From Verrucomicrobiota bacterium (GTDB lineage: Bacteria; Verrucomicrobiota; Verrucomicrobiia; Chthoniobacterales; UBA10450), in NCBI GenBank assembly GCA_041167085.1, contig JBEEGV010000028.1, forward strand, positions 2,463 through 66,462: 64,000 nt of DNA, in the 5' to 3' direction. A program made the position numbers and the translations under genes. The notes under the pieces were generated by a model. It was not told where the DNA came from and did no database searches. It saw only the letters and a program-made list of their open reading frames with translations. This document shows, piece by piece, positions 15,016 to 34,880 of this stretch (its first letter is position 1; every line of letters starts with the position of its first letter).

Positions 15016-15153
15016 GTGAGCTTTTAGCGGCGATCTATCATCGTCGCAAATGTTCTGTAGCCGCGCCGCTCTGCCTGCCGCGCCGAAGCCTTGGCGAAGG
15101 AGGGTTAGGGCGTTATCAAACTCACGGCGACAGAGCACCGTGGTTACACCGCC

Positions 15154-16314
15154 CTAATAGACATCGCGCTTGTAACGCTTGTCGCTCTTCAGTTTTTCGA
15201 TGTATTCGTTTGTCTGCTCGACAGTTTTGCCGCCTTGTTCCTGAGCGATCTGCCTCAGGGCAGCATCTACATCCTTGGCCATGCGGCGCGCATCGCCGCA
15301 AACGAAGAAGTGCGCGCCTTCGCTCTCAAGCCATTGCCAAAGTTCGGCTGCGCAACTCAGCATTTTGTGTTGCACATAGGATTTGTCAGCCTGATCGCGC
15401 GACCACGCGCAATCCAGGCGGGTAAGGGCGCCGTCAGTTTTCAATTTTTCGAGTTCGTCCTTGTAAAAATAATTGCAGTGCTCGTGTTGCGATCCGAAGA
15501 AGAGCCAATTTTTCCCCTTCGCTCCCAGCGCCTGCCGCTCTTGCAGATAAGCGCGAAACGGCGCGATGCCCGTTCCCGGTCCGACCATGATAATGGGAGT
15601 GTTGTTGTCCTCAGGGAGGCGAAACTTCGATGTATTTGGAAAAACAGGAACCGGCGTGCTCGTGGCTCGCTCAGCCAGAAAAGTTGAGCAGACACCTTTG
15701 CGGATGCGGCCCCGACTTTCATATTGCACCACGTCGATCGTGAAATGGACCTGGTTCGGATGCGCTTTCAGGCTCGAGGAAATCGAGTACAAGCGCGGCT
15801 GCAATTTCGCCAGAGTGTCGACCAATTCCTGGGCCGTCCATTTAATCGATGGATGTTCGATCAGGAAATCGATCACCTCCATTCCCCAGAGATAGGCGTC
15901 GAGCTCCTGCTTCCGCTCTGGTTTGAGAAGATCGCTTAACAAGGGCGCGGCAATGGCACGTTCCGCAATCGCCTTCAAAAATTTCGGAGTTGTTTGAGTA
16001 ATCCGGCAATCGCGCAACAAAGCGTCTCCCAGGGTGGTGTCGCCCTTCGGACCCTTCACCGGCTCGTCCGGCCTGGCGCGAATGATTTTGATAATTTCAT
16101 CCGCCAACGCCGAATCGTTCGTTGGCCAAACCGTCATCGAATCGCCAACTTCGTAATTTAATCCCCAACCGGTTAGGTCGAGCTCGAAATGACGCGTGTC
16201 CTTTCCCGACCCTTCTCCGCACAAGCTGCGGTTAACCTTCATCTTGGCCGGAAATGGATTTGCGCGGGTATATGGCGCTCCGGCGGCGTTTGGTGGAGCG
16301 GTAGTTTCCGGCAT
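15154..16314 (-). CDS. CysJ-type FAD/NADPH oxidoreductase (FNR-like module only), paralog 1
   Basis: RLYSISSS, GPGTGIAPFRAYLQER, WLFFG, FFVCGDARRMAKDV, C-terminal RYKRDVY. Confidence 0.85.
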   Translation of the reverse strand: MPETTAPPNAAGAPYTRANPFPAKMKVNRSLCGEGSGKDTRHFELDLTGWGLNYEVGDSMTVWPTNDSALADEIIKIIRARPDEPVKGPKGDTTLGDALLRDCRITQTTPKFLKAIAERAIAAPLLSDLLKPERKQELDAYLWGMEVIDFLIEHPSIKWTAQELVDTLAKLQPRLYSISSSLKAHPNQVHFTIDVVQYESRGRIRKGVCSTFLAERATSTPVPVFPNTSKFRLPEDNNTPIIMVGPGTGIAPFRAYLQERQALGAKGKNWLFFGSQHEHCNYFYKDELEKLKTDGALTRLDCAWSRDQADKSYVQHKMLSCAAELWQWLESEGAHFFVCGDARRMAKDVDAALRQIAQEQGGKTVEQTNEYIEKLKSDKRYKRDVY

Positions 16315-17815: not shown

Positions 17816-20800
17816 TTAGCGACGCGGCTTCGCGGTCGGAGCAGTTTTCGATTCGACTCTTGGGGTTGCGCGCGCCGAACCTTCCAGAACTGGTGAAGGA
17901 GTCGGTGAAGGTAGCGAAAGCGGCGTGACCAGGGCGCCGCGCTTTGTCGTCAATACACCGCCGGAAAGAGTGACGTCTTCCACGCGGTACAACTCCGGCC
18001 TCCGTCGAACATCGAGATCTTTGGCATCGGAAAATGTCGAGCGGCGGTAAAAGCGATCCATCTCGTCCAGATGAAACGGACGAGCCCCGCGCCGGCCAAA
18101 GACCACCGTTTGTCCACCGGTTTCATCAACCACGCGATCGCGTTCAAGGCCGCGCGAAACGCAGATCGCTTCACCCTTGGTGTGATAAGTGGCAATTAAT
18201 TTTGGATTGGGTCGTGGACTGAATCCCTGCGCGCCCCGAACCGTATCCGGCGAAATTAATTGAAGAACGCGCAGACCGTTTTTTCCATCGGCGACCAGCG
18301 CGAATTGCGACGCGCTTACGCTTCCAACCTGGACGGCGCGAGTATCGTTCATCGCTCCGTCCGCGTTGAACATTTGATCGAGCCGCGGCGCTTCAGGGTT
18401 CTCAATATCGACAATGGCAAGTCCCTCCGGTCCATTGGCGACATAGGCGTAGGTTCGCGCTACATAGAGACGGCCCGCGCGATTCAGCCTGACGCCAGCG
18501 CTTTTTAGTGGAACGGGATGATCCGGCTCGGTGATATCGAGAACTTTCAAGCCGTCATCATCGGTGACAAAGGCGTAACGAAATTGCACGGCAACGCATC
18601 GAGGGTTGCGCAGAAAACCGTCCACCACCTGGCCGACAATCTGCGGATGCATTGGATCGCTCACATTAACGACAAATAGACCGCGCGGAGTAGTGAGATA
18701 GAGACGATGACCCGCGGCCGCGACAAATGTGGCGCCGGTCAATGCCCCGCCCGGATTGAAAACGACATCCTTCTTCAGGAAATTATTGTCAGGGTTACCA
18801 TCGACCAGCGTGGCGACATTGATGATGACAAGGCCTTCTTGTCGATCGGAGACGTAAACAAAAGCGTAGAACAGATCGATCGGTTGTTCTTCGTTTTCCG
18901 GAAGGTGTAAGCGGGCGGGATCGAGCGCGAGCGTGCTCGGCAGCGCAACCGAGGTCGCATCGGGCGTGTGCACATAAGTGCGTTGCCCGAGCGGCGAGAC
19001 CGGCGAAGTGACGATGCGTTCGGAAAATCCCTTTTGGTCGATGTTCGCAACGTCGAATGCTTCGAATCCGCCGGGGCCGTTCGCGGTGTAAAGATATTCT
19101 CCGCGAAGAACGATGTCCTGAATGTCGTTCCCGGAATGTTCGTATGCCTCCTCTAACTCGGAGCCGCGCCCAAGATGCTTTTGGTAGTTTGCCGGATAAG
19201 CAATTGACTGCAGATGACTTCCAATGACCGCCTGCGGTTCGTCCGCTTCGGTCCAAACGACGGCGTGTACTCCTTCACGGCCCTCGCCGACGTAGGCATA
19301 GCGACCGAAAAAATTGACCGTGCCGGTGCCGAATCCTAACAATTGCGCCATCCACGCATTGTTGTCGTTTTCCTGCGACAGGTGGCAATCCGTGCAATTC
19401 TTGGTTGTACCGACGCTCGAAGTGGTGTGCGGAAAATGCGGATTGAACGCCTGCCCGCTGTAGCCTTCAGCTGAAAAAGTCTGTTGCTGCGAATAAACCC
19501 ATTCGCGATTCGCATTTTGGGAACTCACCACCACCGCGCTCGACGATCGAATAACAGCCATTCGATGTTTCTTTACCGTCCCGTCGATGCCGAGCATGAA
19601 AACGTCGTCCCGCACGACCTGCGGATTATAAGTGGTAAAGTTGCGATCGGTTACGCCTTCAAACTTATTCTGCGGCACCCGCTGATTCGCTTTCATGGGT
19701 AAATGACACCCAAAACAGCTCGTGGCCCATGAGGTGTGACAAATCTGGCAATCCATCGCCGAATTATCGTGCGCGAGATGGACGCGGCGGTCCGATTCCG
19801 GGGAGCGCACGCCACTGGCGTGCGTGTCGCGGCGACTCGCCGCGATATCTTCGGTTGGCGAGTCGCCAACCGGGGCGCGCGAGTCGCGTGCGCTCCCAAG
19901 AACAGGAACAAGTCCACCCCAGGTCGTACCATCACGTCTCAATGTTTTCGCGTAGGCCGATTTTGGATTGTAGTGCGGCGACAGTGGATTAATCGTGTCG
20001 ACCGTTTGCGGGATCTCCCAGCGCACGTCGGGCGACATGGTGGACTGTTGATAAAGAGCGCTTCCTTCCCAGGTAAACCGCGGGCCGAACGGTGTGTTGC
20101 TATTGTTGAGTAAATCAAATTCTCCGGCGTTGCCCGAAGTCATCAGGGTGGGCCTCTGGTCGATGGTGCCGTGGCAATCAACGCAAGTGATGGTCGTGGC
20201 GTTGCGGGGCTCGCCGTAAAGCATCCCGTTGCCGTGGACGTCGACGTTGAAATGGCAATCCGCGCACTGCATTCCGTGTGCGAGATGCACGTCTTTCAGG
20301 TGGACAGCTTTCGAAAATTTGTGCGGATCCTTATCGTCGATTCGATTGTCATCGAGGTCGAGCAGGTTGCCTTTGCGATCGTGCTTGAAGACCGCGCGAA
20401 AGACCCAGCCGTGTCCGTGGTAGTCGGCGAACTGGGTATGTTTCAGTTGCGGATTTAATTCGGCGACACGATCGAGAAAATCCTTGTCCCCCCAAAGTCC
20501 GCGCGCGGCCGCCGCTTCGGGATTTTCCAATGTCGATCGCACAAGTTCCGCGCTGGTCGGGTCGTGCTGCTCGGCCGGATACATTAGCTCGCCGTCGGTT
20601 TCCTGATCCCACCAGGTGTAACCGAGATAAGGATTCACAAAGAGATTTCCCTGATGCATGTGGCAGTTCATGCACTGACTCGAAGGAATCGAACGCGTGA
20701 ATTGATGAACAATGGGATGCCCTCGCTCGGACTTTGGAATTGTTTGGTCGGCGGTGAAACTCAAACCCTCGTGACCATATTTGCTCCACCAGCCGGAATT

Positions 20801-21844
20801 CGTGGGCGATCGATCGTTGGCGTAAACGACGTGGCATGCCGAACATCCGCTTGATCGATAATCGCCCGGGTGATCGTTCGATCCCAGAAAACCCAGGAGT
20901 GGATCGTGCAGTCGCGTTTTTTGCAGTCCGAGAAAAACTGGATCTGTGCGATTCAAGGTACCCAGTCCGCGTTCAGACAGGCGCCGCTCCGGCTTTCCAT
21001 TTGGTTCCGAACTGGTCGGTAATCCGAGGGATAGTTGCGGTCGTCCTCCTTTCTCGAAAATGCGCAGGATGTTGCCCGGATTACTCAGGTTGAATCGCGG
21101 CAGAGGTTCAATGAAAGGCAGAATACCGCGCAGGCGTGTGTCTTCGGCGCTAACCGGGGTGTAGCTGATCAACTTGAGTGGCGCACCATCGGCGCCGTAA
21201 GCCTGGCCAAAGCGGTAGTTCTTCTGCGGGTAGGCGCCGTTATTATATAGAGCAGCGCCCCAGAGCATGGCCCCGTGGTTCATCATGCTGTGATCGACGT
21301 TGCGGACGATCTCGCCGTGACATAGGCCGCAGGTATCCTTGGCCACGCGTAAGTCTCCGGGATTCATGAAACGGATGAATTCCGGCGATTCATGATTGAG
21401 CCAGACATTCGAGTTGGGCGGATTAGCCGACGTTTTCCAAAATTCCTTATTTCGCGGCAGAATATGGGCTTGCTCCTTCGTTAGGCCGCGTCCGGGGTTG
21501 CCCCCGTGACAATCGATGCAGCCGAGCACGACATGTTCGGCCTTGTGCATGGGCTCAACGCCTTGATGGCACTGCAGGCAGCCCGCACTTTTTGCGTTCG
21601 CTTCGGCCTGGGTTTGATCGATCCAATTACGCGGCGGGAGCGAGCCGTGGCTGATGGAAGTCTGGACGGGGACCGAGGTCGGTGGGCCGTAGCCATCTTC
21701 GGAAGCTCCAAATCCCAAGCTCCAAATCCCAAAGAAACACGAAACTCCAATGACCAAACTAAAACGCCAACCCGCGAAAACGCGTTTTGGAACTTGGGGA
21801 CTGGGATTTCCTTGGTGCCTGGATTTTGGTGGTTGGGGTTTCAC
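17816..21844 (-). CDS. decahaem c-type cytochrome fused to a C-terminal LVIVD-repeat beta-propeller
   Basis: Ten CxxCH motifs: CLQCH, CIDCH, CGLCH, CSACH, CMNCH, CADCH, CVDCH, CQICH, CFGCH, CTDCH. LVIVD-like blades: GLVIINVA, GLFVVNVSDP, GLKVLDITEP, GLAIVDIENP, GLRVLQLISP. N-terminal signal-like segment FSLVIGVSCFFGIWSLGFGAS. The GTG start abuts the upstream stop. Confidence 0.9.
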   Translation of the reverse strand: MKPQPPKSRHQGNPSPQVPKRVFAGWRFSLVIGVSCFFGIWSLGFGASEDGYGPPTSVPVQTSISHGSLPPRNWIDQTQAEANAKSAGCLQCHQGVEPMHKAEHVVLGCIDCHGGNPGRGLTKEQAHILPRNKEFWKTSANPPNSNVWLNHESPEFIRFMNPGDLRVAKDTCGLCHGEIVRNVDHSMMNHGAMLWGAALYNNGAYPQKNYRFGQAYGADGAPLKLISYTPVSAEDTRLRGILPFIEPLPRFNLSNPGNILRIFEKGGRPQLSLGLPTSSEPNGKPERRLSERGLGTLNRTDPVFLGLQKTRLHDPLLGFLGSNDHPGDYRSSGCSACHVVYANDRSPTNSGWWSKYGHEGLSFTADQTIPKSERGHPIVHQFTRSIPSSQCMNCHMHQGNLFVNPYLGYTWWDQETDGELMYPAEQHDPTSAELVRSTLENPEAAAARGLWGDKDFLDRVAELNPQLKHTQFADYHGHGWVFRAVFKHDRKGNLLDLDDNRIDDKDPHKFSKAVHLKDVHLAHGMQCADCHFNVDVHGNGMLYGEPRNATTITCVDCHGTIDQRPTLMTSGNAGEFDLLNNSNTPFGPRFTWEGSALYQQSTMSPDVRWEIPQTVDTINPLSPHYNPKSAYAKTLRRDGTTWGGLVPVLGSARDSRAPVGDSPTEDIAASRRDTHASGVRSPESDRRVHLAHDNSAMDCQICHTSWATSCFGCHLPMKANQRVPQNKFEGVTDRNFTTYNPQVVRDDVFMLGIDGTVKKHRMAVIRSSSAVVVSSQNANREWVYSQQQTFSAEGYSGQAFNPHFPHTTSSVGTTKNCTDCHLSQENDNNAWMAQLLGFGTGTVNFFGRYAYVGEGREGVHAVVWTEADEPQAVIGSHLQSIAYPANYQKHLGRGSELEEAYEHSGNDIQDIVLRGEYLYTANGPGGFEAFDVANIDQKGFSERIVTSPVSPLGQRTYVHTPDATSVALPSTLALDPARLHLPENEEQPIDLFYAFVYVSDRQEGLVIINVATLVDGNPDNNFLKKDVVFNPGGALTGATFVAAAGHRLYLTTPRGLFVVNVSDPMHPQIVGQVVDGFLRNPRCVAVQFRYAFVTDDDGLKVLDITEPDHPVPLKSAGVRLNRAGRLYVARTYAYVANGPEGLAIVDIENPEAPRLDQMFNADGAMNDTRAVQVGSVSASQFALVADGKNGLRVLQLISPDTVRGAQGFSPRPNPKLIATYHTKGEAICVSRGLERDRVVDETGGQTVVFGRRGARPFHLDEMDRFYRRSTFSDAKDLDVRRRPELYRVEDVTLSGGVLTTKRGALVTPLSLPSPTPSPVLEGSARATPRVESKTAPTAKPRR
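21701..21841. repeat. palindromic CCAAA/TTTGG element (same family as 6652-6900) lying inside the 5' end of the cytochrome CDS
   Basis: ggaagctccaaatcccaagctccaaatcccaaag... and ...ttttggaacttggggactgggatttccttggtgcctggattttggtgg. It shares ggaagctccaa, ttggaacttgg and gggatttc(y)ttgg with the 6.7-kb copy. Confidence 0.75.
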
Positions 21845-23914
21845 TTAGTAAGTGAGCGTCACCGTCACGATCCCGCTATAAAGAAAATCATCGACATGCG
21901 CGGGCGGTGGCTGGGGATATCCATGAACCGGCACGGTGTTTGCCCGATAAATATCCTTGTAGCCCTGCCGCGGAATGAGAAACCCGGCCCCGGCTGTGAT
22001 GATAATGTTTTCGGTGAGCAACGGCCGCCATTCGAATCCCGCGCTGAAATCGAGCGCGAAATCGTTGCTCGCGTGATTAGTGAAAAGGACGAGTGCCGTC
22101 GGCTCGGTCGTGACGGTCCGGATGTAATTGACGTTGATGAAACTCTTCAGTTTCGGTGTCACGTCTGCATCCAGCCCGTAACCGAAGAGCAGCGTGCCCG
22201 GGTTGACGAAATTGGCCTGGCCTTCCGTCTTGCTCGTTCGAAAGTCGACCACCAAACTGTCGCGCTGCTTAAAATTGACCGCCGTGCCGGCAAGATTGAA
22301 GCCCTGATGCGAGTAATAGCTGAATGGCCCGCCGATAAAAAATGGCCGATCCAGCACGGTATCGAAACCGGTCGCATGCGAATCGGTCGGATTGGAGTCT
22401 CCGCTCGCGTAAAACACCGATAGCTTGTGGCGCAGCCAATTCTTGTCGACCGAGACTTCGAGTGCGGCCATTTGTCCGTTGATGTCAACGCGCTGCCCGG
22501 CGATGCCGTTCAGACTGTCCTCACCCAGGACCTGATAAAAGGCATGATCGATGTTGAGCCAGCCGATATGTCCATCACCGGCCCAGCCCAGGTAATAAGC
22601 CTGGACATAATGATCGGCCACTGTGCCGATCGGCTCCGGCCGCGTGATGAAACCGTTCTTGTCGTAATGCCGGCTGTTATTATCGAAGTCGCCGACAAAA
22701 CTTAGTTCGCCGGTATAACCTTTCCAGATCAGATCCTGTCGAAAAACATTCGCCGCGTAAACCTGCTGGTCGCGTCGGCTGAATTCGTTCAGATCCGAAT
22801 ACGTGTCCTTCTCCAGCATATCGAACGCGGCGACATTGTATTGCCACCGGTTGTTGTCGTAGTTGCCGAAAATCCGCACGCCCAGATTCGTGTCGTTGAA
22901 AATGAATCCGCGAAAATCGCTGACGAACGGTTGAATACCGGCGCGCGATGAAACGAAATCGTAATTGTTCGACAGATCTCGCACGTGAATTTCGGCAAAG
23001 GCTTCCTGTAACGAGACGAATTCTTTTTCCCGCGTTGTCCCTTGTTGCGGGTTGGGATTGACGACATTCCTTTCCTCCACATCGATGTAGTTGTGGTTGT
23101 AAACCCCAAGTAATCGCACCGCCCATTCCACCGGTTTGAACGCGGTCTCGCCTTTGAAAAGATCGATACCGATGGAGAAATCGTTCGACCAAAAATCCTG
23201 TTCGCTCCGTCCGAAAAATTCCGAGCTGTTCGGTCGCTCCGAGCTGACGCCGCTTGGAGTGGGGAGGCGCCGGACTTCAAACTGGAAAAAATTCTCCGCG
23301 GTCAGATTGAGGAAAATGTCCTGGCCGTAAATCGGTGCGTCGCCTTTGAGTTCACTCTGCAGGTACGGATGCCAGAGTTTTAAATCGGATTGGTAAGGGG
23401 TCTCGGTTGAAGGATCGGCGTATCGTTTCCAGCGCCCGAAACCGATGAACCAACGATTGGGAACTGGTTGGGAAGAGGGCAGGAGACCTTCACCGTTTTC
23501 CGACTCAGGATAGGTCTCGTACTCGAGTTTTCTGCGGCGCGGTACTGTTTGGCGAACGCCTTTGCGCGGCAGTGCCAGCGAACGCGGCAACGCTTCTTCA
23601 CCATAATCCGGAAGTTGTGGCAGAATCGGCGGGAACAATTCCGGCGGTGGCGCTTCCTCTTCGATGTCGCGCGTAGAAGCGCCGGGATCCGGATTAAACT
23701 CGGCCGGCGGCAAGGGCGGTTGTGCGACATCGTTTTGATTGGCCTCGGTCACGACGGTGACCTGTGCGACCGAGACATTCTGCGGTCTGGCAGCCGCGCG
23801 CGAAATCTCGACTGTTTGTCCGCGCACGCACGTTGCGCTTCCCACGAGCAGGAGTGCCGTCGTGAGCATTCGACGCAAACTCGCGCCAGCGGGCGAGCGA
23901 GCAAACCAGCGCAT
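21845..23914 (-). CDS. large outer-membrane beta-barrel protein (porin-like), function unknown
   Basis: Signal-like MRWFARSPAGASLRRMLTTALLLVGSATC. Pro/Glu-rich linker. Long Y/F/N/D/G-rich region with alternating hydrophobicity. C-terminus ...SGIVTVTLTY (terminal aromatic). The ORF is open to 23953. Confidence 0.7.
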   Translation of the reverse strand: MRWFARSPAGASLRRMLTTALLLVGSATCVRGQTVEISRAAARPQNVSVAQVTVVTEANQNDVAQPPLPPAEFNPDPGASTRDIEEEAPPPELFPPILPQLPDYGEEALPRSLALPRKGVRQTVPRRRKLEYETYPESENGEGLLPSSQPVPNRWFIGFGRWKRYADPSTETPYQSDLKLWHPYLQSELKGDAPIYGQDIFLNLTAENFFQFEVRRLPTPSGVSSERPNSSEFFGRSEQDFWSNDFSIGIDLFKGETAFKPVEWAVRLLGVYNHNYIDVEERNVVNPNPQQGTTREKEFVSLQEAFAEIHVRDLSNNYDFVSSRAGIQPFVSDFRGFIFNDTNLGVRIFGNYDNNRWQYNVAAFDMLEKDTYSDLNEFSRRDQQVYAANVFRQDLIWKGYTGELSFVGDFDNNSRHYDKNGFITRPEPIGTVADHYVQAYYLGWAGDGHIGWLNIDHAFYQVLGEDSLNGIAGQRVDINGQMAALEVSVDKNWLRHKLSVFYASGDSNPTDSHATGFDTVLDRPFFIGGPFSYYSHQGFNLAGTAVNFKQRDSLVVDFRTSKTEGQANFVNPGTLLFGYGLDADVTPKLKSFINVNYIRTVTTEPTALVLFTNHASNDFALDFSAGFEWRPLLTENIIITAGAGFLIPRQGYKDIYRANTVPVHGYPQPPPAHVDDFLYSGIVTVTLTY

Positions 23915-24046
23915 GGGAGGGCGAGGATGCCGGAAAAGGACGGTTATTGGCAAGCTTCCCTGTAGAAAGAGGGCAGCCGGTGGCTACCCCGCCAGCGATC
24001 GACCCTGGTTCCGCGAGTCACAGGTGGATCGAGTTCTCCGCAGCTC

Positions 24047-24120
24047 GATGCTAATAATGGCGGCGAAGCCGCTAAAATTTACCAACGCGCTCGGAGATCG
24101 CGTTCCACCTTGAAGGGACA
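24047..24120 (+). repeat. conserved ~70-nt non-coding element (copy A), upstream of the GlcG-like gene
   Basis: gatgctaataatggcggcgaagccgctaaaatttaccaacgcgctcggagatcgcgttccacctt aligns with 55499-55566. A 1-nt indel breaks any common reading frame. Confidence 0.8.
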
Positions 24121-24182
24121 TGCGCCCTGGCCACAGGCCCGGTTGCTACAGAACTCAAGAACTGATAAGAGACATTCCCGGC

Positions 24183-25838
24183 ATGAAGCTTCGCGCAACG
24201 CTGTTTCCTCTCGCCTTCTACGCGGTCGTTTCCTCCGCGCACGCCCAGCTTACCGTCACGGACGTTCAGAATATAATCAATCACGCGGTGACACGTGCGG
24301 TCAAGGTTTCGCCAAACAGCGTGATCGCAGTAACCGATCGCGAAGGGTATGTGCTCGGAGTTTGGGTTGTTCGCGGTGGCTCGGCAACGGCGGCCGAGAT
24401 TGCCACAGCCGTCAGCAAGGCCGGGACGTCTGCGTTCTTGAGTAGCAATCAGAACGCGTTCACCTCGCGCACGGCCGGTTTCATTATCCAGCAGCATTTT
24501 CCACCGGGTGTTAACAACACCGCAACCGGTCCGCTGGTCGGTGTCGGACTTTCCAATCTTTTTATCTCGGATGTGAATCGGTTTAAGAAGACCGATCTGA
24601 TTCCCTGCCCGCCGGGAAGTACATCGCCTGGTGTATTTGGATCGCCCATTGCCTTTACGTCGCTGGACGGTTCTCCCGGCGGAGTTCCCCTTTATAAGAA
24701 TGGCGTCCTGGTGGGAGGGGTTGGCGTGACGGGCGATGGCACCCCGCAACCGGCCATTCCGTTTGTTCCATCAGCGACCTTACCTCCGCTGCCCGCCTGC
24801 ACGCTGGCTTCTATTCCACTCGTGCCCATAGCGCGCGACGAGAATCCCTTCATTTATATAAGCGGCTACGACAAGGACGAAGATGTCGCGCTCGCCGGTC
24901 AGAAGGGATTCGCGCCTTCGGCCGGCATCACGGCCAACAATGTCTTCATCAACGGCATTCGACTGGCCTACGTGGCCTCAACCACCAAGAACGCAAAGAA
25001 CATTGCTTTGCAGGGAAATGCTGACCCGGGATTTCCTATTGTCGGTGCGCCGCCGCCATTTCCCTACGTGGTTGCGACATTCGGTGGCGTCACGGGCCAG
25101 ATTCGGCAACCGATCATGGGCGACCCGTTAGTCGCGTCGATCAACGGACAGCCGCGTCTCAATGCGACAGAAGTAGCAAGCATCATTGATTTCGCGGCTC
25201 AGCGGGTGAAAATCACGCGCGCCGGGATTCGCCTACCGATTGGAACACAGATGCAGGTTTTCATCACGGTCGTGAACAATCCGGACATGGACAACGCGGC
25301 TCCGACCGTCCTTGGGACATTTCGGACCGGCGAAGCTACTCTGTTTAGCTGGGACGTAGCCGTGCAAAAGGCGCGGACTACGCTTTTTTACACGCGGCAC
25401 GATTTTCTGGGGTTCGGCTTGAATGTCGCGATGTCGACCCGGGCGGTTGGTTTTCTGGCCCAACGTTTTTATCCACCCGGCATCGACGGGAACCCTCCCG
25501 GACCATTCTTCACCGACCAGGATAAGTTATCCGGCTTTGCCGGCACGGAGCCTAACGTCACTTTCACCGGAATGGCCGGGACCACGCCGATGCGCAATGG
25601 CATCATTCCCGATCTGCCTAACGGCATTACGATTTTTCCCGGCGGCTTTCCACTCTATCGCAACGGCGCGTTGATCGGTGCAATAGGGGTCAGCGGTGAC
25701 GGCGTCGACCAGGACGACATCGTCGGCGCTTCCGGCACGCATGATTTTCTCGCACCCGACGCGATCCGTTCCGACCAGTTCTCCTTCCGCAGCACGCGCC
25801 TTCCCTACGCAAAATTTCCACGCGACCCCGGCCGATAA
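24183..25838 (+). CDS. secreted protein with two GlcG/HbpS-like (DUF336, haem-binding-type) domains
   Basis: Signal peptide MKLRATLFPLAFYAVVSSAHA. The DUF336 signature occurs twice: GGVPLYKNGVLVGGVGVTGDG and GGFPLYRNGALIGAIGVSGDGVDQDD. Confidence 0.7.
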   Translation: MKLRATLFPLAFYAVVSSAHAQLTVTDVQNIINHAVTRAVKVSPNSVIAVTDREGYVLGVWVVRGGSATAAEIATAVSKAGTSAFLSSNQNAFTSRTAGFIIQQHFPPGVNNTATGPLVGVGLSNLFISDVNRFKKTDLIPCPPGSTSPGVFGSPIAFTSLDGSPGGVPLYKNGVLVGGVGVTGDGTPQPAIPFVPSATLPPLPACTLASIPLVPIARDENPFIYISGYDKDEDVALAGQKGFAPSAGITANNVFINGIRLAYVASTTKNAKNIALQGNADPGFPIVGAPPPFPYVVATFGGVTGQIRQPIMGDPLVASINGQPRLNATEVASIIDFAAQRVKITRAGIRLPIGTQMQVFITVVNNPDMDNAAPTVLGTFRTGEATLFSWDVAVQKARTTLFYTRHDFLGFGLNVAMSTRAVGFLAQRFYPPGIDGNPPGPFFTDQDKLSGFAGTEPNVTFTGMAGTTPMRNGIIPDLPNGITIFPGGFPLYRNGALIGAIGVSGDGVDQDDIVGASGTHDFLAPDAIRSDQFSFRSTRLPYAKFPRDPGR

Positions 25839-25897: not shown

Positions 25898-28800
25898 TTG
25901 TTGCGCGCTGCCTTGGTCGTAGTGCTCTCGACCGGAAACCTGATTTTCCTGATCTCTCCCGCACAACCTGCGGATGGCCCGGGGGCAGTGCTTCTTACCA
26001 AAGAAAACATTGTTGATGTGAAGGCCCAAAAGGCCGCGTGGCTTTCGGCGACCGTCGGCCAGACGCTTACCGTCCATGATGGGATCCGCACCGGCGAAGA
26101 TAGCCGCGCAACCGTGCGGCTGAGTGATTTGAGCGTTCTTCGAATAGACGAGCTGACCGAGACCGAAATCCTGCCACCGCAGGAAACGAACGCCACGCCG
26201 ACGCTGAATCTCAAACAAGGTTCCGCTTACTTTTTCAGTCGTGAGAAGTCACGTGAGCTTCAAATCAAAACTCCGGCAGCAAATGGCGCCATTCGGGGGA
26301 CGGAGTTCGTGGCGACCGTCGCGTCAAATGGCAATACGACCGTGACCATGCTCGATGGCGAGCTGGAGCTTTCAAATGCGCACGGTTCCGTCGTCGTCCG
26401 AAGCGGTGAGCAGGCAAACGCGGAGCCTGGTGGCAGGCCGACGAAGACGGCTGTTATCGAAGCAATCAATTCCGTCCAATGGTGCCTTTATTATCCCGGC
26501 GTTCTGGATCTGAATGACCTCGCCTTTTCCACAGGGGAAAAACAGGCATTGGAGCAGTCGCTCTCCGCTTATCGCGCAGGCGATCTGCTCGTCGCGCTGA
26601 AAGCATATTCGCATGGTCGGGCTTCAGGTTCGAACGCAGACAAGATTTATCATGCGGGTTTGTTTCTTGTCGTCGGCCAGGTCGCGAAAGCGGAACGTTT
26701 GTTGCGCGAAGTGAAACAGGATAGTCCGGGCCGCGAAGCTCTCGCGACATTGATTGCAGCTGTAACATTGAAGGCCCATGAAAGTCGCGCCGGGCCGAGC
26801 ACTGCCAGCGGCTGGATCGCAGAATCTTACTATCGCCAATCGAAAGCGGATCTGGCCGGCGCGCTAGATGCGGCGCAGCGGGCAACTCAAATCGATCCTT
26901 CATTTGGATTCGCGTGGACGCGACTGGCCGAATTACAATTTAGTTTCGGCCGTGTGCCTCAGTCGATCCAGGCGCTCGAGAAAGGGTTCGAGCTGTCACC
27001 TCGAAATGCTGCTGCCCACTCGCTTCGCGGTTTCCTGGCGAGCGCCGAAAACAAAATTAACGACGCGAAAGAAGCTTTTGAAAAGGCGATGGAGATCGAT
27101 GGCGCGCTGGGCAATGCCTGGCTCGGTCGCGGGTTGTGTTTTATCCGGCAAGGCAAAGACGAACTCGGCCGGCTTGATCTCCAAACGGCGGCGGTGCTTG
27201 AACCCAACCGCTCCATGTTCCACAGCTATCTCGGAAAGGCCTTCAGCAATGTCGGCAACGAGCAAAAGGCACGGCTCGAGTTGGACCGCGCCAAAGAATT
27301 GGATCCGGGAGATCCAACGCCCTGGATTTATTCCGCGCTCGAAAACAAACAGGACAATCGGATCAACGAAGCGGTGCGCGATTTGGAAAAATCGCTCGCA
27401 TTAAACGACAACCGTCGCGTTTATCGCTCGCAATTTCTTCTCGACCAGGATCGCGCAGTCCGCAGCGCAAATCTGGCTGCCATTTATCAGGATGATGGGA
27501 TGGACGAGGTCAGCGTCCGTGAAGCGACACGAGGCGTGGACTATGACTATGCCAGCGCTTCCTCGCACTTGTTCCTCGCCAATAGCTACAATGCTTTGCG
27601 CGATCCGACCCGGATCAATCTGCGATACGAAACGCCCTGGTTTAACGAACTCCTCCTGGCCAATTTGCTCTCGCCGGTCGGCGGCGGCCCGTTGTCTCAG
27701 TACGTATCCGAGGAGGAATATTCGAAACTGTTTGAAGCCAATCGCTTCGGGATCACGTCCACCTCCAGCTACTTCACTACCGGCGAAATTCGTGAGACTG
27801 CATCGCAGTACGGCATTTTTGGAAATGTCAGCTATTCGTTCGATACGGATTTTCAGTACAACAACGGCCTTCGACCGAATAACGAAATCACCCGTTCGGA
27901 GTCCTACGGTCAGGCGAAGGTGCAGCTGTCGCTTCAGGATACCGTATTTGTGCAGACGAAATATCAGGACACGCGCGAAGGCGATCTCCTCCAATATTAC
28001 AATCAGGACAATGCCGCGCCAGGGGCGCATTTCCGCGAGCTGCAACAGCCCGCGATAATCCTGGCTGGTTATCACCACGAATGGGCGCCGGGGATTCATA
28101 CCCTTCTCCTGGTCGGGCGCCTGGCGGACGAAGTGTTCTATTCCAATCTCAATACCGGAGCGGACGTGAATGGGTTCTCCCAATCCGGGCTGCTTCCGAA
28201 TATCAGTCGATCGCTGGTTTTCGTGCGCGATCCGAGTGGAAAAGTGGCGGACATTTTTCCCCTGCCGGTGGACGTTCGCTACCACAACACATTCGCCACA
28301 TACACAGGCGAACTAAATCAGATTTGGGAGGCGGAAAGTAACAGACTCATTGTCGGCGCCCGATTTCAGTCGGGCGAGTTTCACACGAGTGATCATTTTG
28401 ACAATGTGCCAGCTCTCGTCGCCCCCTTCTTCATGAACCCACCTGCCGCGCAGGATTTTGAAACGTCCCTGGAGCGGGAGAGCTTTTATGCTTATGACAC
28501 GTGGCGGCCGTTCCGAACTTTATCGATCACCGCGGCAGTCAGCTACGATCGATTGAGCTATCCGACCAATCATGGAAATCCGCCGATTGTGGATGCGGAA
28601 AGTTCACGAGCTCGTGTTTCGCCAAAAGTCGGTTTGATCTGGAATCCAATGGGCAATCTCGTCTTTCGCGGAGCCTACGCGCGGGCCCTGGCAGGAGTGA
28701 GCTTTGACGAAAGTGTTCAGCTTGAGCCAACTGAGGTCGCTGGTTTCAATCAGGTTTTTCGAACGATAATTTCAGAATCTCTGATCGGTTCCGTTGCAGC

Positions 28801-29485
28801 TCCCACCTACGAGAGCGGAGGCCTGCTGATTGAAAATAAGTTTAGTTCGGGGACCTATGCTGGTGTTCAGGCAACAATTCTTCGGTCAGACGTAGACCGC
28901 CGGGCCGGTATTTTCGAGGGCTCAGTTGATTCTTTGCACAACTTCAACTCGCCAATTGTCGCATCGTCGACCCCGCAGAGTTTCCGGTATGAGGAAGATA
29001 ATTTATTGCTCACGTTGAATCAGTTGGTCGGCGACGAATGGTCGTTCGGCGCGCGATACCAGGTTTCGTTTTCCGATCTGGAAACGATTTTTGGCGGTGT
29101 TCCGCAATCTGTTGTCGTCGCCTCTCTCCCTCCAGGTCCCAATCAACTGTTTTTCCATTCGCCAAGTTTCGCCGACAGCCGCCTGAAAGCGACGCTGCAC
29201 CAGGCTCAGATCTTTGCGCTCTACAACCATCCCTCAGGTTTTTTCGGCCGAGTGGAAGAATATTGGGCGCGGCAGAGCAATGTGGGTTACGCCCCTGACA
29301 TTCCGGGCGATGAAATCTTGCAACTAAACGCTTACATCGGCTACCGCTTCCGGCGCAATTACGGCGACATCACCCTAGGATTTCTGAATCTGACGGATCA
29401 AAATTACAAACTCAATCCGCTGAACTATTACAGCGAGCTTCCCCGAGATCGAACTCTCCAGGTTCGCGTCCGTCTTAATTTCTGA
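25898..29485 (+). CDS. FecR domain - TPR repeats - TonB-dependent-receptor-like outer-membrane barrel fusion protein
   Basis: FecR-like N-terminus (TVHDGIRTGEDSRATVRLSDLSVLRI ... IRGTEFVATV). About 6 TPRs (e.g. AWLGRGLCFIRQGKDELGRLDLQTAAVLEPN). C-terminal barrel motifs VSPKVGLIWNPMGNLVFRGAYARA and GFLNLTDQNYKLNP, with terminal LQVRVRLNF. TTG start. Confidence 0.75.
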   Translation: MLRAALVVVLSTGNLIFLISPAQPADGPGAVLLTKENIVDVKAQKAAWLSATVGQTLTVHDGIRTGEDSRATVRLSDLSVLRIDELTETEILPPQETNATPTLNLKQGSAYFFSREKSRELQIKTPAANGAIRGTEFVATVASNGNTTVTMLDGELELSNAHGSVVVRSGEQANAEPGGRPTKTAVIEAINSVQWCLYYPGVLDLNDLAFSTGEKQALEQSLSAYRAGDLLVALKAYSHGRASGSNADKIYHAGLFLVVGQVAKAERLLREVKQDSPGREALATLIAAVTLKAHESRAGPSTASGWIAESYYRQSKADLAGALDAAQRATQIDPSFGFAWTRLAELQFSFGRVPQSIQALEKGFELSPRNAAAHSLRGFLASAENKINDAKEAFEKAMEIDGALGNAWLGRGLCFIRQGKDELGRLDLQTAAVLEPNRSMFHSYLGKAFSNVGNEQKARLELDRAKELDPGDPTPWIYSALENKQDNRINEAVRDLEKSLALNDNRRVYRSQFLLDQDRAVRSANLAAIYQDDGMDEVSVREATRGVDYDYASASSHLFLANSYNALRDPTRINLRYETPWFNELLLANLLSPVGGGPLSQYVSEEEYSKLFEANRFGITSTSSYFTTGEIRETASQYGIFGNVSYSFDTDFQYNNGLRPNNEITRSESYGQAKVQLSLQDTVFVQTKYQDTREGDLLQYYNQDNAAPGAHFRELQQPAIILAGYHHEWAPGIHTLLLVGRLADEVFYSNLNTGADVNGFSQSGLLPNISRSLVFVRDPSGKVADIFPLPVDVRYHNTFATYTGELNQIWEAESNRLIVGARFQSGEFHTSDHFDNVPALVAPFFMNPPAAQDFETSLERESFYAYDTWRPFRTLSITAAVSYDRLSYPTNHGNPPIVDAESSRARVSPKVGLIWNPMGNLVFRGAYARALAGVSFDESVQLEPTEVAGFNQVFRTIISESLIGSVAAPTYESGGLLIENKFSSGTYAGVQATILRSDVDRRAGIFEGSVDSLHNFNSPIVASSTPQSFRYEEDNLLLTLNQLVGDEWSFGARYQVSFSDLETIFGGVPQSVVVASLPPGPNQLFFHSPSFADSRLKATLHQAQIFALYNHPSGFFGRVEEYWARQSNVGYAPDIPGDEILQLNAYIGYRFRRNYGDITLGFLNLTDQNYKLNPLNYYSELPRDRTLQVRVRLNF

Positions 29486-31491
29486 TGCGGATTCCGAAAA
29501 TCAGGCACCTCAGCCGCGGATTAGCGATTATATTTGGCAGTCTTCTCGCGGTAACGATAGGGCTGGCGTGCCTGCGTTTTTCTTTTGCCGAACCTTTGGC
29601 CCGGCGCAGCTATGATCTGCCTTTCATCGTGCGGTCAACTCTTGACACCCACGAAGCCGTTCTTGTCTACCTGGACGACGAATCGGCGAAGCAACTACAG
29701 CAGCCGCTCGATAATCTTTGGAATCGGGCGTTGCACGTCCCTCTTTTGGATCGACTGGCCCGGGACAATGCGCGGTTGGTTTTTTACGACATCGTCTTTG
29801 ATCAGCCAGCAGCGGAACCCAGCGTCGATGCAGCTTTTGCGGAGTCCATTCGACGCCACGGGAAAGTGATACTCGGCGCGGCGCTGGATAAAATCGAACG
29901 GATGGGCGGGGTGAATAAAAAAAGTGTAGCCGCCCCGATCAATCCCCTTCGCAAAGCTGCTGCCGGATGGGGAATTCTGGCATTTGATCCGGTCGATGCA
30001 GACTATGGAGTCCGCGAGATATTCCTCGGGACGAGCCTCGTTCCGACCGCGACGTGGAAAGCAGCCCAGGTGCTGGGAGCAAAGGTTACGCGCGAGTCTC
30101 GCGAGAACCCGATCAAGCGATGGGTCAATTATTATGGTCCGCGAAATACTTTCTCGTCGGTGAATTTTGCACAGGCACTCGATCCGCAGGGTGTGCCGCC
30201 CGGGTACTTCAAAGACAAAATCGTGTTAGTGGGTGGCCGATCGGCGGTCGGCTCCTTATCGGTTGGAAGGGACGAGTTCGCGACGCCTTATTCGACCTCG
30301 AATCACCAGTTTTCCCCCGGCTTGGAGATTCACGCGACCATTCTGCTCAACCTGCTGCGCGGGGAATGGCTTACCCGAATGTCTGAGAATTGGGAGACAA
30401 CTCTTATTGTCGTGATAGGGCTCGTGGCAGGCGGCCTCTCGGTTTTGCGTCCGCCGCTAGCCGCGGTCCTGGCGCTGCTAGGATCGATCGTCCTGGCGAG
30501 CTTTGCTTGTTGGTTGGTTTGGAATCAACGGATTTGGTTCGATTGGCTGGTTCCAGCCGGCATTCAGATGCCGTTAGGCCTGGTTTGGTCCGTTGGTTCG
30601 CAATACCTGCTGGAATCGCGCCGCCGGAAAGAATTGCGCAAAGCGTTCGGGTTTTATTTGTCGCCGCAGATGGCCGACAAGATCGCCAACTCGGACTTTG
30701 ATCTAACACCTGGGGGTAAGGTGGTTGATGCAACCATCATCTTTACCGACCTCGAGAATTTCACGACGCTGTCAGAAGACCTCGATCCGTCCGAAGTCTC
30801 ACAAATTCTGATCGCATATTTCGAACAGACGACGCACTGCATTCTCGAAAACAAGGGCACCATCATCAAATATGTCGGGGACGCAGTCATGGCCGGTTGG
30901 GGCGCTCCGATCGATGAGCCTGAGCACGCCATCCGCGCAGCCGAGGCCGCGTGCGATCTGCGCTGTCTCACGGAACTCGAAGTTCGCGGAAAGAAACTGC
31001 GCACCCGGATAGGGGTTAATAGTGGCAAAGTACTCGCCGGAAATCTGGGTTCATCCTTCCGCTTCGACTACACGATGATTGGTGACACGACGAACTTTGC
31101 GTCACGCCTTGAGTCATTGAACAAATACCTCAATACCCAGGTCTTGATTTCCGAGGCCGTCAGAGAACAGCTTGGGGATAAATTCATCACCCGGCGCCTC
31201 GGCGAATTTCGCGTAGCCGGCAAAACGCGCAGTGTGATTATCCACGAACTGCTCTGCCGCTGCGGCGACGCTCAATCCGGAGAAGAGAGCTGGATCAGGG
31301 TCTTTGAGGAAGGACTGGGCGGATTCCGGGCGGGCGAATTTTCGAAGGCGTGCGACCTGATGAATCAAACCCGTCACCTGCGCGGAGGGTCTGATGGCCC
31401 GGCCGAGTTCTACTTAAGAAAGATTGCCGCAATGAAGGGGAACGGAAATCCGGCAGACTGGACGGGGATCGTTGAGTTGACCGAAAAATAG
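29485..31491 (+). CDS. CHASE2 sensor domain - transmembrane - class III adenylate/guanylate cyclase
   Basis: N-terminal TM, an extracytoplasmic ~300-aa domain and 3 TMs. Cyclase motifs IIFTDLENFTT, KYVGDAVMAGWGAP, RIGVNSGKVLAGNLG, YTMIGDTTNFASRLE. The start overlaps the upstream stop (TGATG). Confidence 0.9.
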   Translation: MRIPKIRHLSRGLAIIFGSLLAVTIGLACLRFSFAEPLARRSYDLPFIVRSTLDTHEAVLVYLDDESAKQLQQPLDNLWNRALHVPLLDRLARDNARLVFYDIVFDQPAAEPSVDAAFAESIRRHGKVILGAALDKIERMGGVNKKSVAAPINPLRKAAAGWGILAFDPVDADYGVREIFLGTSLVPTATWKAAQVLGAKVTRESRENPIKRWVNYYGPRNTFSSVNFAQALDPQGVPPGYFKDKIVLVGGRSAVGSLSVGRDEFATPYSTSNHQFSPGLEIHATILLNLLRGEWLTRMSENWETTLIVVIGLVAGGLSVLRPPLAAVLALLGSIVLASFACWLVWNQRIWFDWLVPAGIQMPLGLVWSVGSQYLLESRRRKELRKAFGFYLSPQMADKIANSDFDLTPGGKVVDATIIFTDLENFTTLSEDLDPSEVSQILIAYFEQTTHCILENKGTIIKYVGDAVMAGWGAPIDEPEHAIRAAEAACDLRCLTELEVRGKKLRTRIGVNSGKVLAGNLGSSFRFDYTMIGDTTNFASRLESLNKYLNTQVLISEAVREQLGDKFITRRLGEFRVAGKTRSVIIHELLCRCGDAQSGEESWIRVFEEGLGGFRAGEFSKACDLMNQTRHLRGGSDGPAEFYLRKIAAMKGNGNPADWTGIVELTEK

Positions 31492-34800: not shown

Positions 34801-34880
34801 CCAAAGTGGCCAAAAAAGGAGCAAGTTACTCGCTCTCCTCTGCGAAGAAGGCCACCGTGACCATCGTTAACGTCCCGTAA
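31809..34880 (+). CDS. giant secreted surface protein: CarboxypepD_reg-like repeats, He_PIG/cadherin-like Ig domains, C-terminal Calx-beta
   Basis: Signal peptide. Five or so units of the type G.V.D..G.P..GA.V......TDSNGNY.L....G.W.V. Units of the type GLPPGLSADPASGIISGTPT. Calx-beta-like SGTDYTLSGSSGQIDIPAGAASATVTLTAL. GTG start. Confidence 0.8.
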   Translation: MKIKYIACSVFMVLMGLVSAGFAASVSISPNAVNTDYVGKVSLSIAGLTVGKTVLVERFVDFNGNGAVDASQDTLTFSFKVTDGQVPLIGGVRNANVPGDDDGVADGAIRIDLPFPNVDGVFTSAEAKFIFRVSDPQNSFTPVTAVFQVTQSAKPQGVSGQITAASGGTPLSGAFVVVAPPNGSPFAATVTDVNGNYSFFTPPGSFVVFVVQNGFVSDQNAGAVTVVANQFATRNLALTSAGFTLSGKVSDSSSTAGIAGVFVTANSSANNLFSGGFADANGNYSLKLTPGQWQVRPDKAGPAAVGYLTSSKQTTNATASGSATLNFALSKATALIYGTVNDGANPVNGLQIKTNDQGNLHNTQGVTFAPNGKYVLGVVAGTWGVAPDSDSLNERGYSGGTGSDVTLNAGETSQVDFVVQAITAHLRGQIIDDVGAPIPNMQMSVQDSSSPSGTGSLTPQSDSNGNFDAGVRGGTWEISLNCSKAQGQGYINVFGDDFNVTDGVDQNNIVLTFPRFTATISGSVKDNLGHPIPGVQMDADQPINGSMDYGPGCVSTDSNGNYTLKVLGGSWTVSASSDDLNARGFNSVTGQDVNISNGTGTANFVATQMPPIITGPLMATATVGQLFVYQVTATGLPNSYGATPIPPNLSFNDVQGIIGGVPTTPGTTQVQLSATNSMGTGSATLTITVQPAPSSGPVIISGTSITARTGQPFSFQVLTKNASSSARLDASGLPPGLSADPASGIISGTPTSDGGFGVALTVTDGAATTQGILQMTCVSDPAFPVITSPGAATLTVGKFFSYTITAPGDSDPSDPTTFSIIGALPAGLSFNPQTATISGTPTATASQFTNDAIRQTSVESGEEDGPRSEGAVPLLNNTPPVSINQLVTHNKQGTGTKPLNYFPATATPAIALTSSSTSVNEGDSLTFIFSASIVDPVNAKTVHYQMSGKAKSGTDYTLSGSSGQIDIPAGAASATVTLTALTDMVAKEKNETVTMTLTKVAKKGASYSLSSAKKATVTIVNVP

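Follow-up and report, generated by a model that had tools for sequence, protein, structure and literature searches.

A decahaem cytochrome-propeller protein co-inherited with an AlgE-like outer-membrane barrel and an HbpS-like protein in several bacterial phyla

A conserved trio of genes

The 64,000-nucleotide stretch of DNA analysed here (positions 2,463 to 66,462 of contig JBEEGV010000028.1, assembly GCA_041167085.1; referred to below as the window) comes from a Verrucomicrobiota bacterium of the Chthoniobacterales and carries, on its minus strand, a gene for an outer-membrane barrel protein (BAR) followed directly by a gene for a decahaem cytochrome fused to an LVIVD-type beta-propeller (CYT). 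A preliminary description, made from the letters of the DNA, had put the pair forward as a candidate new porin-cytochrome conduit, and its layout of two open reading frames (ORFs) meeting at a TAA-GTG junction was confirmed in coordinates and in sequence. The two genes proved to be strictly co-inherited, and the conserved unit is a trio with a gene for an HbpS-like protein rather than the pair. The BAR-CYT module is a genuine feature, very widely distributed and under strong constraint, and it is functionally uncharacterised. The features of the trio in the window are the following.

21845..23953, minus strand: BAR ORF, 702 codons from TTG; outer-membrane barrel gene
N-terminal part of BAR, minus strand: signal peptide (ending ...LLLVGSATCVRG, cleaved before Q), then ~150 aa of disordered Pro/Glu-rich sequence, then the barrel
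21848..23347, minus strand: BAR barrel core, ORF residues ~203-702; 18 predicted strands, AlgE-like fold
22196..22405, minus strand: BAR L7 insertion, 70 residues between predicted strands 13 and 14; ORF residues 517-586, SGDSNPTDSHATGFD...NFVNPG
17816..21844, minus strand: CYT ORF, 1342 codons from GTG; decahaem cytochrome-propeller gene
21701..21844, minus strand: CYT signal peptide, residues 1-48; predicted signal-peptidase I cleavage after G-A-S
19295..21700, minus strand: CYT haem domain, residues ~49-850; ten CxxCH motifs spaced 3-2-2-3, with inserts of ~107-162 residues (most 135-160)
17975..19294, minus strand: CYT LVIVD beta-propeller, residues ~851-1290; 6-7 blades
17819..17974, minus strand: CYT Pro/Ser/Thr-rich tail, residues ~1291-1342
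24120..25838, plus strand: HbpS/DUF336-like gene, 572 codons; probable start at the Met of MKLRAT... at 24183; signal peptide and two DUF336-type segments

Linkage was assessed in a sample of 80 loci round BAR homologues from species-representative genomes, adjacency being counted in the 75 loci (Verrucomicrobiota and one Desulfobacterota locus) in which the contig extended at least 600 nt beyond BAR. CYT lay downstream of BAR on the same strand in every one of them (75/75). The HbpS-like gene was divergent and no more than 3.5 kb upstream of BAR in 53 of 61 loci, and genes for CysJ-like FAD/NADPH reductases were present downstream of CYT in 25 of 55. Eight further loci came from other lineages, namely Rokubacteria, Pirellulales, Acidobacteria, a deltaproteobacterial metagenome-assembled genome (MAG), Binatia, Gemmataceae and two unclassified contigs; the trio of HbpS-like, BAR and CYT genes was found in all eight, with HbpS-like proteins of 477-846 aa and CYT proteins with LVIVD repeats of 1196-1357 aa. 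The co-occurrence of barrel and cytochrome that the conduit proposal called for is thus borne out by 75/75 loci in the sample and by 8/8 in other lineages, and the fusion of cytochrome and propeller appears, from the sequences compared, to be ancient and invariant.

The nearest relatives of BAR and CYT, at 75-86% identity, belong to Chthoniobacterales and "Candidatus Udaeobacter" MAGs from soil. With 90% clustering, the search for BAR gave more than 3,600 matches, and in the 50%-clustered library the family comprised 1,472 representative clusters (E <= 0.001); the CYT search returned at least 8,000 matches. By profile search, BAR members at ~45-52% identity were found in Rokubacteria, NC10, Acidobacteria, Planctomycetes, Binatia and deltaproteobacterial MAGs. 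Judged by record titles and source protein names, most carriers belong to lineages of soil and sediment. The source annotation of both proteins is nearly always "hypothetical protein," a few BAR relatives being named after a CarboxypepD_reg domain.

The HbpS-like protein matched Pfam PF03928 in two stretches with 59.4 bits (cut-off, 25). It has an internal duplication, seen by tblastn, and its relatives in the PDB are EfgA and the C-terminal domain of PduO.

The outer-membrane barrel

The signal-like N-terminus, the Pro/Glu-rich stretch and the beta-rich body ending in VTLTY that had been described for BAR are all present. An AlphaFold2 model was built from a 132-sequence cross-phylum alignment (A2; query, 673 aa); its mean predicted local distance difference test score (pLDDT) was 78.6, exceeding 90 across the C-terminal 500 residues, which form a beta-barrel, and falling below 50 in the first 150. 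The strand map of the model has 18 strands, with long connections of 21, 14, 25, 70, 18 and 29 residues on one side and connections of 2-9 residues on the other. The predicted topology is of the usual outer-membrane type, with both termini periplasmic, and the Pro/Glu-rich extension would likewise lie in the periplasm. In acidobacterial homologues (e.g., P0440 and P0480; L083 5053-7272, L087 10001-12187), a CarboxypepD_reg domain stands in place of this extension, and the periplasmic N-terminal module of BAR therefore appears to be exchangeable.

When the model was compared with the PDB by Foldseek, AlgE (3rbh/4afk) came first, with E = 5e-15 and a template-modelling (TM) score of 0.66-0.70 normalised to AlgE, followed by 16-18-strand porins (Campylobacter MOMP, OmpM1, chitoporin and the substrate-specific porins OprD/Occ). 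The likeness to MtrB that had been proposed from the size of BAR and its position beside a cytochrome gene did not hold, given the 18-strand AlgE fold, the absence of MtrB from the top 50 Foldseek matches, the lack of a match to PF11854, and an invariant 70-residue loop. Searches of BAR against Pfam and NCBIfam gave no family at E <= 1, including PF11854 and PF13372, and nothing was found among PDB sequences with either the single sequence or a profile. Among 41 diverse BAR relatives searched against Pfam, a weak match to Alginate_exp (PF13372) was seen in two (best E = 3e-4); the remaining matches were to N-terminal CarboxypepD_reg-type domains and to one fn3_3 domain. Genes for exopolysaccharide or alginate synthesis or export were absent from the window and from the eight distant loci. 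A role for BAR as an unrelated polysaccharide exporter was ruled out by the adjacency of CYT in 75/75 loci together with this lack of polysaccharide genes nearby.

Loops of outer-membrane proteins usually diverge fast. In BAR, by contrast, no insertion or deletion occurred at model residues 174-632 across the 132 sequences from many phyla, and the loops were conserved to the same degree as the strands, the only variable parts being the last loop (L9) and the N-terminal extension; such conservation is highly atypical of an outer-membrane protein. The 70-residue insertion, at the position of extracellular loop L7, was modelled with pLDDT ~88-98 and is gap-free across phyla, with a mean majority-residue frequency of 0.75 and numerous invariant residues. 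Because the BAR loops are invariant although such loops normally diverge, they must be either packed in the lumen or held by a permanent partner, and the L7 insertion may serve as a lumen constriction or plug or as a docking surface. The 18 strands and the large conserved insertion also make BAR an implausible sheath for a decahaem protein of the MtrA type. The model therefore fits better with a specific constricted channel and/or docking platform than with a sheath round a cytochrome.

The decahaem cytochrome-propeller

CYT is the only CxxCH-bearing ORF in the window. The ten CxxCH motifs that had been counted in its first ~820 residues are exactly ten, at residues 89, 109, 172, 334, 391, 527, 554, 699, 710 and 817, and they hold 20 of the 23 cysteines of the protein, which is beyond chance. 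All ten haem sites were conserved in 11 sequences from at least seven lineages, site 3 being CX4CH in four of them; the same alignment contained 12 further invariant histidines, which could be distal haem ligands, and 304 invariant columns in total. Identity between phyla was 54-60% over 1,200 residues, and homologues in several phyla were 51-100% identical over the full length. The invariance points to a tightly constrained machine. In an hhalign self-comparison of the haem domain, the sole internal repeat was a paired-CxxCH unit, haems 1-2 aligning with haems 6-7.

Across the haem region, Pfam gave weak generic cytochrome c3/c7 signals only. The ExtM model NF040943 was matched with 66-67 bits (cut-off, 800), and all of 30 family members compared matched it weakly (best E = 9e-22); ExtN was matched by 21/30, NetB by 13/30, and the NrfB-type pentahaem subunit (PRK11659) by 13/30, with NrfH-type electron-transfer modules also matched by many members. 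The only catalytic family to appear, octahaem tetrathionate reductase, did so in 1/30. In these comparisons the haem modules of CYT resemble electron-transfer cytochromes. Similarity to the MtrC/MtrF pentahaem domain II/IV (PF22113) was at E = 0.88 and 9.5 bits (cut-off, 30) for the window protein and weak in 5/30 relatives, the best reaching 31 bits with no single domain passing alone. The best PDB sequence match was octahaem nitrite reductase (E = 0.003), through short, non-collinear CxxCH segments at chance level. Collinear similarity to the catalytic octahaem enzymes (ONR/NrfA/HAO/OTR), with their catalytic haem region included, was thus not found. With the exception of the LVIVD propeller of CYT, neither protein had a curated family or a PDB sequence relative in the Pfam, NCBIfam and PDB searches, in keeping with the earlier suggestion of an undescribed system, although He et al. 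(2017), discussed below, may have flagged it generically.

The propeller and the Pro/Ser/Thr-rich tail also agreed with the preliminary description, in which at least five LVIVD-type blades had been recognised. The match to LVIVD (PF08309) scored 63.5 bits (cut-off, 20.2; E = 1e-17) and was present in 30/30 relatives. Six clear blades and one degenerate blade could be distinguished by eye, and the CYT model (residues 60-1259) contained at least six four-strand blades, with pLDDT 70-90 at model residues ~850-1100. This model came from an alignment of 120 homologues that were all 83-89% identical, so that its Foldseek outcome is meaningful for the propeller only; the matches were to generic seven-blade propellers, including BtuG2, BT1954 and BACUNI_02894. 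The tail is poorly conserved (alignment A3), and no sorting motif was recognised in it.

In nearly all lineages, the N-termini of CYT homologues are typical cleavable Sec signal peptides, with an AxA end just ahead of a conserved GYGPP, and CYT is therefore predicted to be secreted and usually soluble. An inner-membrane anchor, which would have made CYT an anchored periplasmic enzyme, was rejected because the signal peptides look cleavable.

Gene starts and the junction

The junction reads ...ACTTAC TAA GTG AAA..., the BAR stop codon TAA (21845-21847) abutting the CYT start codon GTG (21842-21844). The abutting codons are thus as described. The translational coupling proposed from them depends on the putative GTG start codon; in relatives the BAR-CYT gap ranges from overlap to ~255 nt, and tight coupling is therefore not conserved. 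The BAR and CYT ORFs of the window also share a reading frame, with a single TAA between them, and a read-through product would be a fusion of 2,045 residues. This is probably a coincidence, because in other loci the two frames differ or are separated by gaps of up to ~255 nt.

The true start of BAR is probably the ATG at codon 14 (23912-23914), which gives 689 aa, in agreement with the public gene call and with the ~690 aa first estimated. For CYT, a protein with 100% identity (P0121, 1300 aa) is encoded on a 616-kb JGI metagenome contig; its public gene call takes TTG codon 43 as the start, which lies 126 nt beyond the GTG. The GTG start appears the more plausible because a start at codon 43 would delete the signal peptide that every homologue possesses; the public start, which omits the hydrophobic segment (codons 1-43, 21716-21844), is probably a mis-annotation.

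Accessory genes in other phyla

A recurrent set of redox genes lies around the trio in other phyla. These encode a NuoF-like NADH-binding flavoprotein, or a Pyr_redox_2 protein, or a membrane-anchored FNR-like protein; an iron-sulfur protein of 570-810 aa, usually with domains that bind cyclic nucleotide monophosphates (cNMP) and sometimes with a HoxU/NuoG-like N-terminus; a membrane protein of ~290 aa; a multihaem cytochrome of 440-600 aa; a c554-like tri- or tetrahaem protein; and often a class III cyclase. The c554-like genes lie directly beside BAR or CYT in L062, L065, L069, L078, L084, L086 and L087, and in some other Verrucomicrobia an additional c554-like gene precedes BAR. In L081, a type II secretin gene adjoins the cluster. 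The multihaem accessory proteins showed no homology to CYT by hhalign.

The ~290-aa membrane proteins are mutually homologous, and none of them reached the threshold of a Pfam family. Two histidine pairs with 14-residue spacing lie in two transmembrane helices of each, and because this is a classic signature, the protein looks like a dihaem transmembrane cytochrome b. Its gene always adjoins those for a multihaem cytochrome and an iron-sulfur protein, usually with cNMP-binding domains. Members of the family are encoded at L081 3778-4695, L083 12617-13486, L084 15637-16491, L082 2704-3690, L087 105-989 and L062 3922-4791.

Iron-sulfur proteins with cNMP-binding domains recur in L081, L083, L084, L086 and L087, an architecture that suggests cNMP-gated electron transfer; no literature on iron-sulfur proteins with embedded cNMP-binding domains was found. 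In L081 (1571-3781), L083 (13525-15672), L086 (2409-4853) and L087 (1025-3196), these domains lie between the cluster-binding regions. The accessory set as a whole reads as a chain leading from cytoplasmic NAD(P)H through iron-sulfur clusters and haem b across the inner membrane to periplasmic multihaem cytochromes, over which control by cyclic nucleotides is possible.

Comparison with known systems

In the MtrCAB, PioAB and MtoAB systems of Shewanella, Rhodopseudomonas and Sideroxydans, as in BAR-CYT, a gene for an outer-membrane barrel adjoins a decahaem cytochrome gene in one operon. The components differ. MtrB and PioB have 26 strands and belong to PF11854, whereas BAR has the 18-strand AlgE fold and does not match that family; and MtrAB and PioAB include a small (~300 aa) periplasmic decahaem protein, MtrA, of which no counterpart is encoded in the 64-kb window. 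MtrC and OmcA have ten haems in a stretch of similar size to the haem region of CYT, and some CYT relatives give the weak PF22113 signal. MtrC and OmcA, however, have a lipobox and haems arranged 5+5, and CYT has a signal-peptidase I signal in most lineages, haems arranged 3-2-2-3, and a fused propeller, so that of the properties of the MtrC/OmcA group it shares the haem count only. The haem density of CYT had been called low, which is correct relative to MtrA; relative to MtrC and OmcA it is not, since about one haem per 77-80 aa, as in CYT, is typical for these outer decahaems.

The OmaB-OmbB-OmcB, ExtABCD, ExtEFG and ExtHIJKL-MNOPQS complexes of Geobacter likewise pair predicted porins, of smaller size, with multihaem cytochromes. 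ExtM, an uncharacterised 12-haem protein of the ext cluster, which also includes a b-type cytochrome and an iron-sulfur protein (PMC5877670), is, of the named proteins, the one closest in sequence to the CYT haem domain, but at 66 bits against a cut-off of 800 this amounts to remote homology only. ExtI is phosphate-porin-like (PMC5877670), unlike the AlgE-like BAR. The porin-cytochrome complexes of Geobacter have separate periplasmic and lipoprotein cytochromes with no propeller fusion, whereas the window has one cytochrome gene. AlgE itself, the best structural match to BAR (18 strands, TM score about 0.7), differs in that BAR lacks a PF13372 match, has no alginate genes nearby, carries an N-terminal extension of ~150 aa (CarboxypepD_reg in Acidobacteria), and is linked to a cytochrome.

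Fusion of a multihaem protein to a propeller had been presented as without parallel among characterised conduits. It is unusual for conduits, but there is a precedent in homologues of hydrazine-synthase beta-gamma with N-terminal c554 domains, in which a multihaem part is fused to a seven-blade propeller in Planctomycetota, Desulfobacterota and Verrucomicrobia (PMC12758564). In those proteins eight haems are followed by the propeller and then by a dihaem peroxidase-like domain, whereas in CYT all ten haems precede the propeller; their gene partners, a hydrazine-synthase alpha homologue and an FG-GAP protein, are also unlike those of CYT. Membership of CYT in the hydrazine-synthase beta-gamma family was rejected because the domain order differs. 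A seven-blade propeller at an outer-membrane barrel is known from BtuG-BtuB of Bacteroides, where the propeller lipoprotein caps the barrel and binds a tetrapyrrole, and BtuG2 and BT1954 are among the structural matches of the CYT propeller. Unlike BtuB, BAR is not TonB dependent, and the BtuG2-type matches are generic ones to a CYT propeller model of medium confidence.

From Verrucomicrobia genomes, He et al. (2017, mSphere; PMC5615132) described a "novel porin-multihaem cytochrome c" complex, for which they proposed a role in passing electrons to extracellular humics; homologues were reported from "Ca. Udaeobacter copiosus" and Opitutus terrae. The porins of that report have at least 20 strands and the adjacent periplasmic cytochrome has eight conserved haem sites, and neither a propeller nor an HbpS-like partner is mentioned; the cluster does not obviously match BAR-CYT, although the report may have flagged the module in a generic way. 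A full-text search of the literature found no paper on an LVIVD-multihaem fusion, an AlgE-like porin with a cytochrome, or a link between HbpS and multihaem proteins. Together, these comparisons indicate that the BAR-CYT module follows porin-cytochrome gene logic but lies outside every characterised system, its component families being unrelated to those of characterised conduits.

Possible functions of the trio

We favour, with a probability of about 0.4, a reading in which CYT is a secreted decahaem reductase with a dedicated barrel channel, BAR, and an HbpS-like helper, the three making up the distal module of an electron-export route. CYT would be exported by Sec and released in soluble form, or lipid anchored in a few lineages, and would act as a ten-haem electron carrier with its C-terminal propeller as a binding surface; BAR, with its AlgE fold of 18 strands and its invariant loops, would be a specific constricted channel and/or docking platform. 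Electrons would leave the cytoplasm, in most phyla by way of the NAD(P)H flavoprotein, the iron-sulfur protein with cNMP-binding domains, the dihaem-b-like membrane protein, and the periplasmic multihaem and c554-like cytochromes, and would arrive at CYT in the periplasm. Held to the barrel by its propeller, CYT would then reduce a small redox-active substrate crossing the outer membrane through BAR, possibly a chelate of Fe(III), a quinone, a humic fragment or an oxyanion. Help may come from the HbpS-like protein, in the role of a haem-binding partner, and a cyclic nucleotide from the neighbouring CHASE2 cyclase may gate the process. The preliminary description had placed a conduit across or on the outer membrane ahead of a periplasmic multihaem protein with a dedicated porin, and the latter fits the evidence at least as well.

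Several points weigh against the export reading. The family is known from genes and predicted structures alone, and the sequence names no substrate. The model of the CYT haem domain, with a mean pLDDT of 39.5, is below the confidence needed for haem packing or for the geometry of propeller and haems. No homologues of the dihaem-b membrane and multihaem accessory genes occur within the 64-kb window, which leaves the electron source of its lineage unexplained. Lipoprotein signals are a hallmark of surface cytochromes such as MtrC/OmcA, and two CYT lineages carry the corresponding lipoboxes (VVGC in L081, Rokubacteria; FMGC in L078, Desulfobacterota). Finally, the conservation of the presumed extracellular BAR loops could equally reflect a surface partner that covers them.

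The last two of these points would be expected if the trio were a trans-outer-membrane or cell-surface conduit, in which CYT sits at the surface with its propeller capping the outer face of BAR, receives electrons through the barrel or via a partner, and reduces Fe/Mn oxides or humics, the capping being likened to that of propeller lipoproteins on TonB-dependent barrels. A permanently bound surface partner would explain the invariant loops, the propeller matches include the Bacteroides surface proteins BtuG2 and BT1954, and the secretin gene of L081 is of type II. The porin gene and the multihaem gene lie side by side and are strictly inherited together; ten haems in ~770 residues of CYT correspond to MtrC/OmcA in size and density; and 5/30 relatives match MtrC/MtrF domain II/IV weakly, the best of them just above the cut-off. 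The 18 strands and large conserved insertion of BAR nevertheless contrast with the 26-strand MtrB, the window offers no second small cytochrome to bridge the barrel, and most lineages have plain signal-peptidase I signals with no recognised surface-export signal. A cross-phylum identity of 54-60% is, moreover, atypical for fast-evolving surface cytochromes, and the carriers include presumed aerobes. The proposal of a porin-multihaem complex serving extracellular electron transfer in Verrucomicrobia, "Ca. Udaeobacter copiosus" among them (He et al. 2017; PMC5615132), counts in favour of this reading. We consider a surface conduit viable, but less likely than the export reading.

Electrons might also flow inward, CYT oxidising an external or periplasmic donor that enters via BAR (Fe(II), Mn(II), reduced humics and nitrogen compounds resembling hydroxylamine are examples) and passing the electrons through c554-like cytochromes to an aerobic respiratory chain. 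In ammonia oxidisers, hydroxylamine oxidoreductase delivers its electrons to cytochrome c554, and c554-like genes stand directly beside BAR or CYT in the loci listed above; many carriers are, by record titles, aerobic soil bacteria, and CYT has its marginal similarity to octahaem nitrite reductase. That similarity, however, is non-collinear and at chance level (E = 0.003), catalytic multihaem families were matched by only one of the 30 CYT members, oxidase genes are not linked to the cluster, and the recurring genes for NAD(P)H flavoprotein, iron-sulfur and dihaem-b proteins suggest downhill export from NAD(P)H, so that uptake seems unlikely. A sensory role, in which CYT, BAR and the HbpS-like protein would detect an extracellular redox-active or haem/iron signal and relay it through the FecR protein and CHASE2 cyclase to cNMP-binding effectors, draws on a different part of the gene content. 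The HbpS-like gene shares its divergent operon with the genes for the FecR-domain protein and the CHASE2 cyclase, the neighbourhood of the trio repeatedly includes cyclases and cNMP-binding proteins, HbpS of Streptomyces is an extracellular redox/haem sensor partner, and EfgA, the DUF336 protein matched by the HbpS-like protein in the PDB, is a ligand sensor. We regard sensing as quite improbable, given that ten haems in a 140-kDa protein would be excessive for a sensor, that the accessory NuoF, iron-sulfur, cytochrome b and multihaem genes indicate electron flux, and that the presence of cNMP domains on the iron-sulfur carrier itself suggests regulation of the pathway rather than its output.

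Beyond the export reading of the trio itself, a wider and doubtful proposal is that the trio forms the outer end of a previously unrecognised multi-phylum pathway of extracellular electron transfer. Such a pathway would be fed by NAD(P)H through a flavoprotein, iron-sulfur and dihaem-b chain in most phyla, bypassing quinones; it would be gated by cyclic nucleotides and end in a decahaem-propeller protein docked on an AlgE-type barrel, in abundant soil bacteria (Chthoniobacterales including "Ca. Udaeobacter," Acidobacteria, Rokubacteria and Planctomycetes) that are regarded as ordinary aerobic heterotrophs. "Ca. Udaeobacter" is among the most abundant soil bacteria. If the module does move electrons to or from external substrates, it would represent a major unrecognised route of iron, manganese and humic redox chemistry, or of reductive iron acquisition, in oxic soils, and would show a structurally new way in which a barrel of the outer membrane and a multihaem protein can be coupled. 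Should the module prove to be a periplasmic enzyme with a channel of its own, it would remain worthwhile to learn what substrate so strongly conserved a decahaem protein of 140 kDa acts on.

Other genes in the window

No tRNA genes or Rfam families were found in the window, and a promoter/terminator scan gave sites no more numerous than in shuffled sequence. The genes nearest the trio are as follows.

25898-29485, plus strand: protein with FecR and TPR domains and a TonB-dependent-receptor-like barrel, 1195 aa; downstream of the HbpS-like gene
29485-31491, plus strand: CHASE2 class III nucleotide cyclase; its start overlaps the stop of the preceding gene
15154-16314 (386 aa) and 13846-15138 (430 aa), minus strand: two tandem CysJ-like FAD/NADPH reductase paralogues with no flavodoxin domain

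The genes at 25898..31491 are probable signalling accessories. A pair of the same kind, encoding a 1195-aa-type FecR/TPR/barrel protein and a CHASE2 cyclase, lies directly upstream of BAR in L034, and CHASE2 or other cyclases are found beside the trio in L034, L078, L084, L085 and L088. The CysJ-like paralogues lie downstream of CYT, beyond a 1.5-kb gap; they are possible electron-input accessories, with an association weaker than that within the trio, and the accessory cluster of L062 holds a membrane-anchored FNR-like relative of them. A metallo-beta-lactamase gene at 10481-11452 was rejected as a member of the cluster, having no homology to those beside the trio in L082 and L084.

Two further genes were noted. 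The plus-strand gene at 31809-34880 encodes a secreted protein of 1023 aa with five CarboxypepD_reg domains and three He_PIG (putative Ig) domains, weak relatives of which occur near the trio in L039 and L041. At 11632-13839, also on the plus strand, a predicted membrane protein of 735 aa is encoded that matched nothing in Pfam or NCBIfam; its synteny with the reductase genes extends to many loci of Chthoniobacterales.

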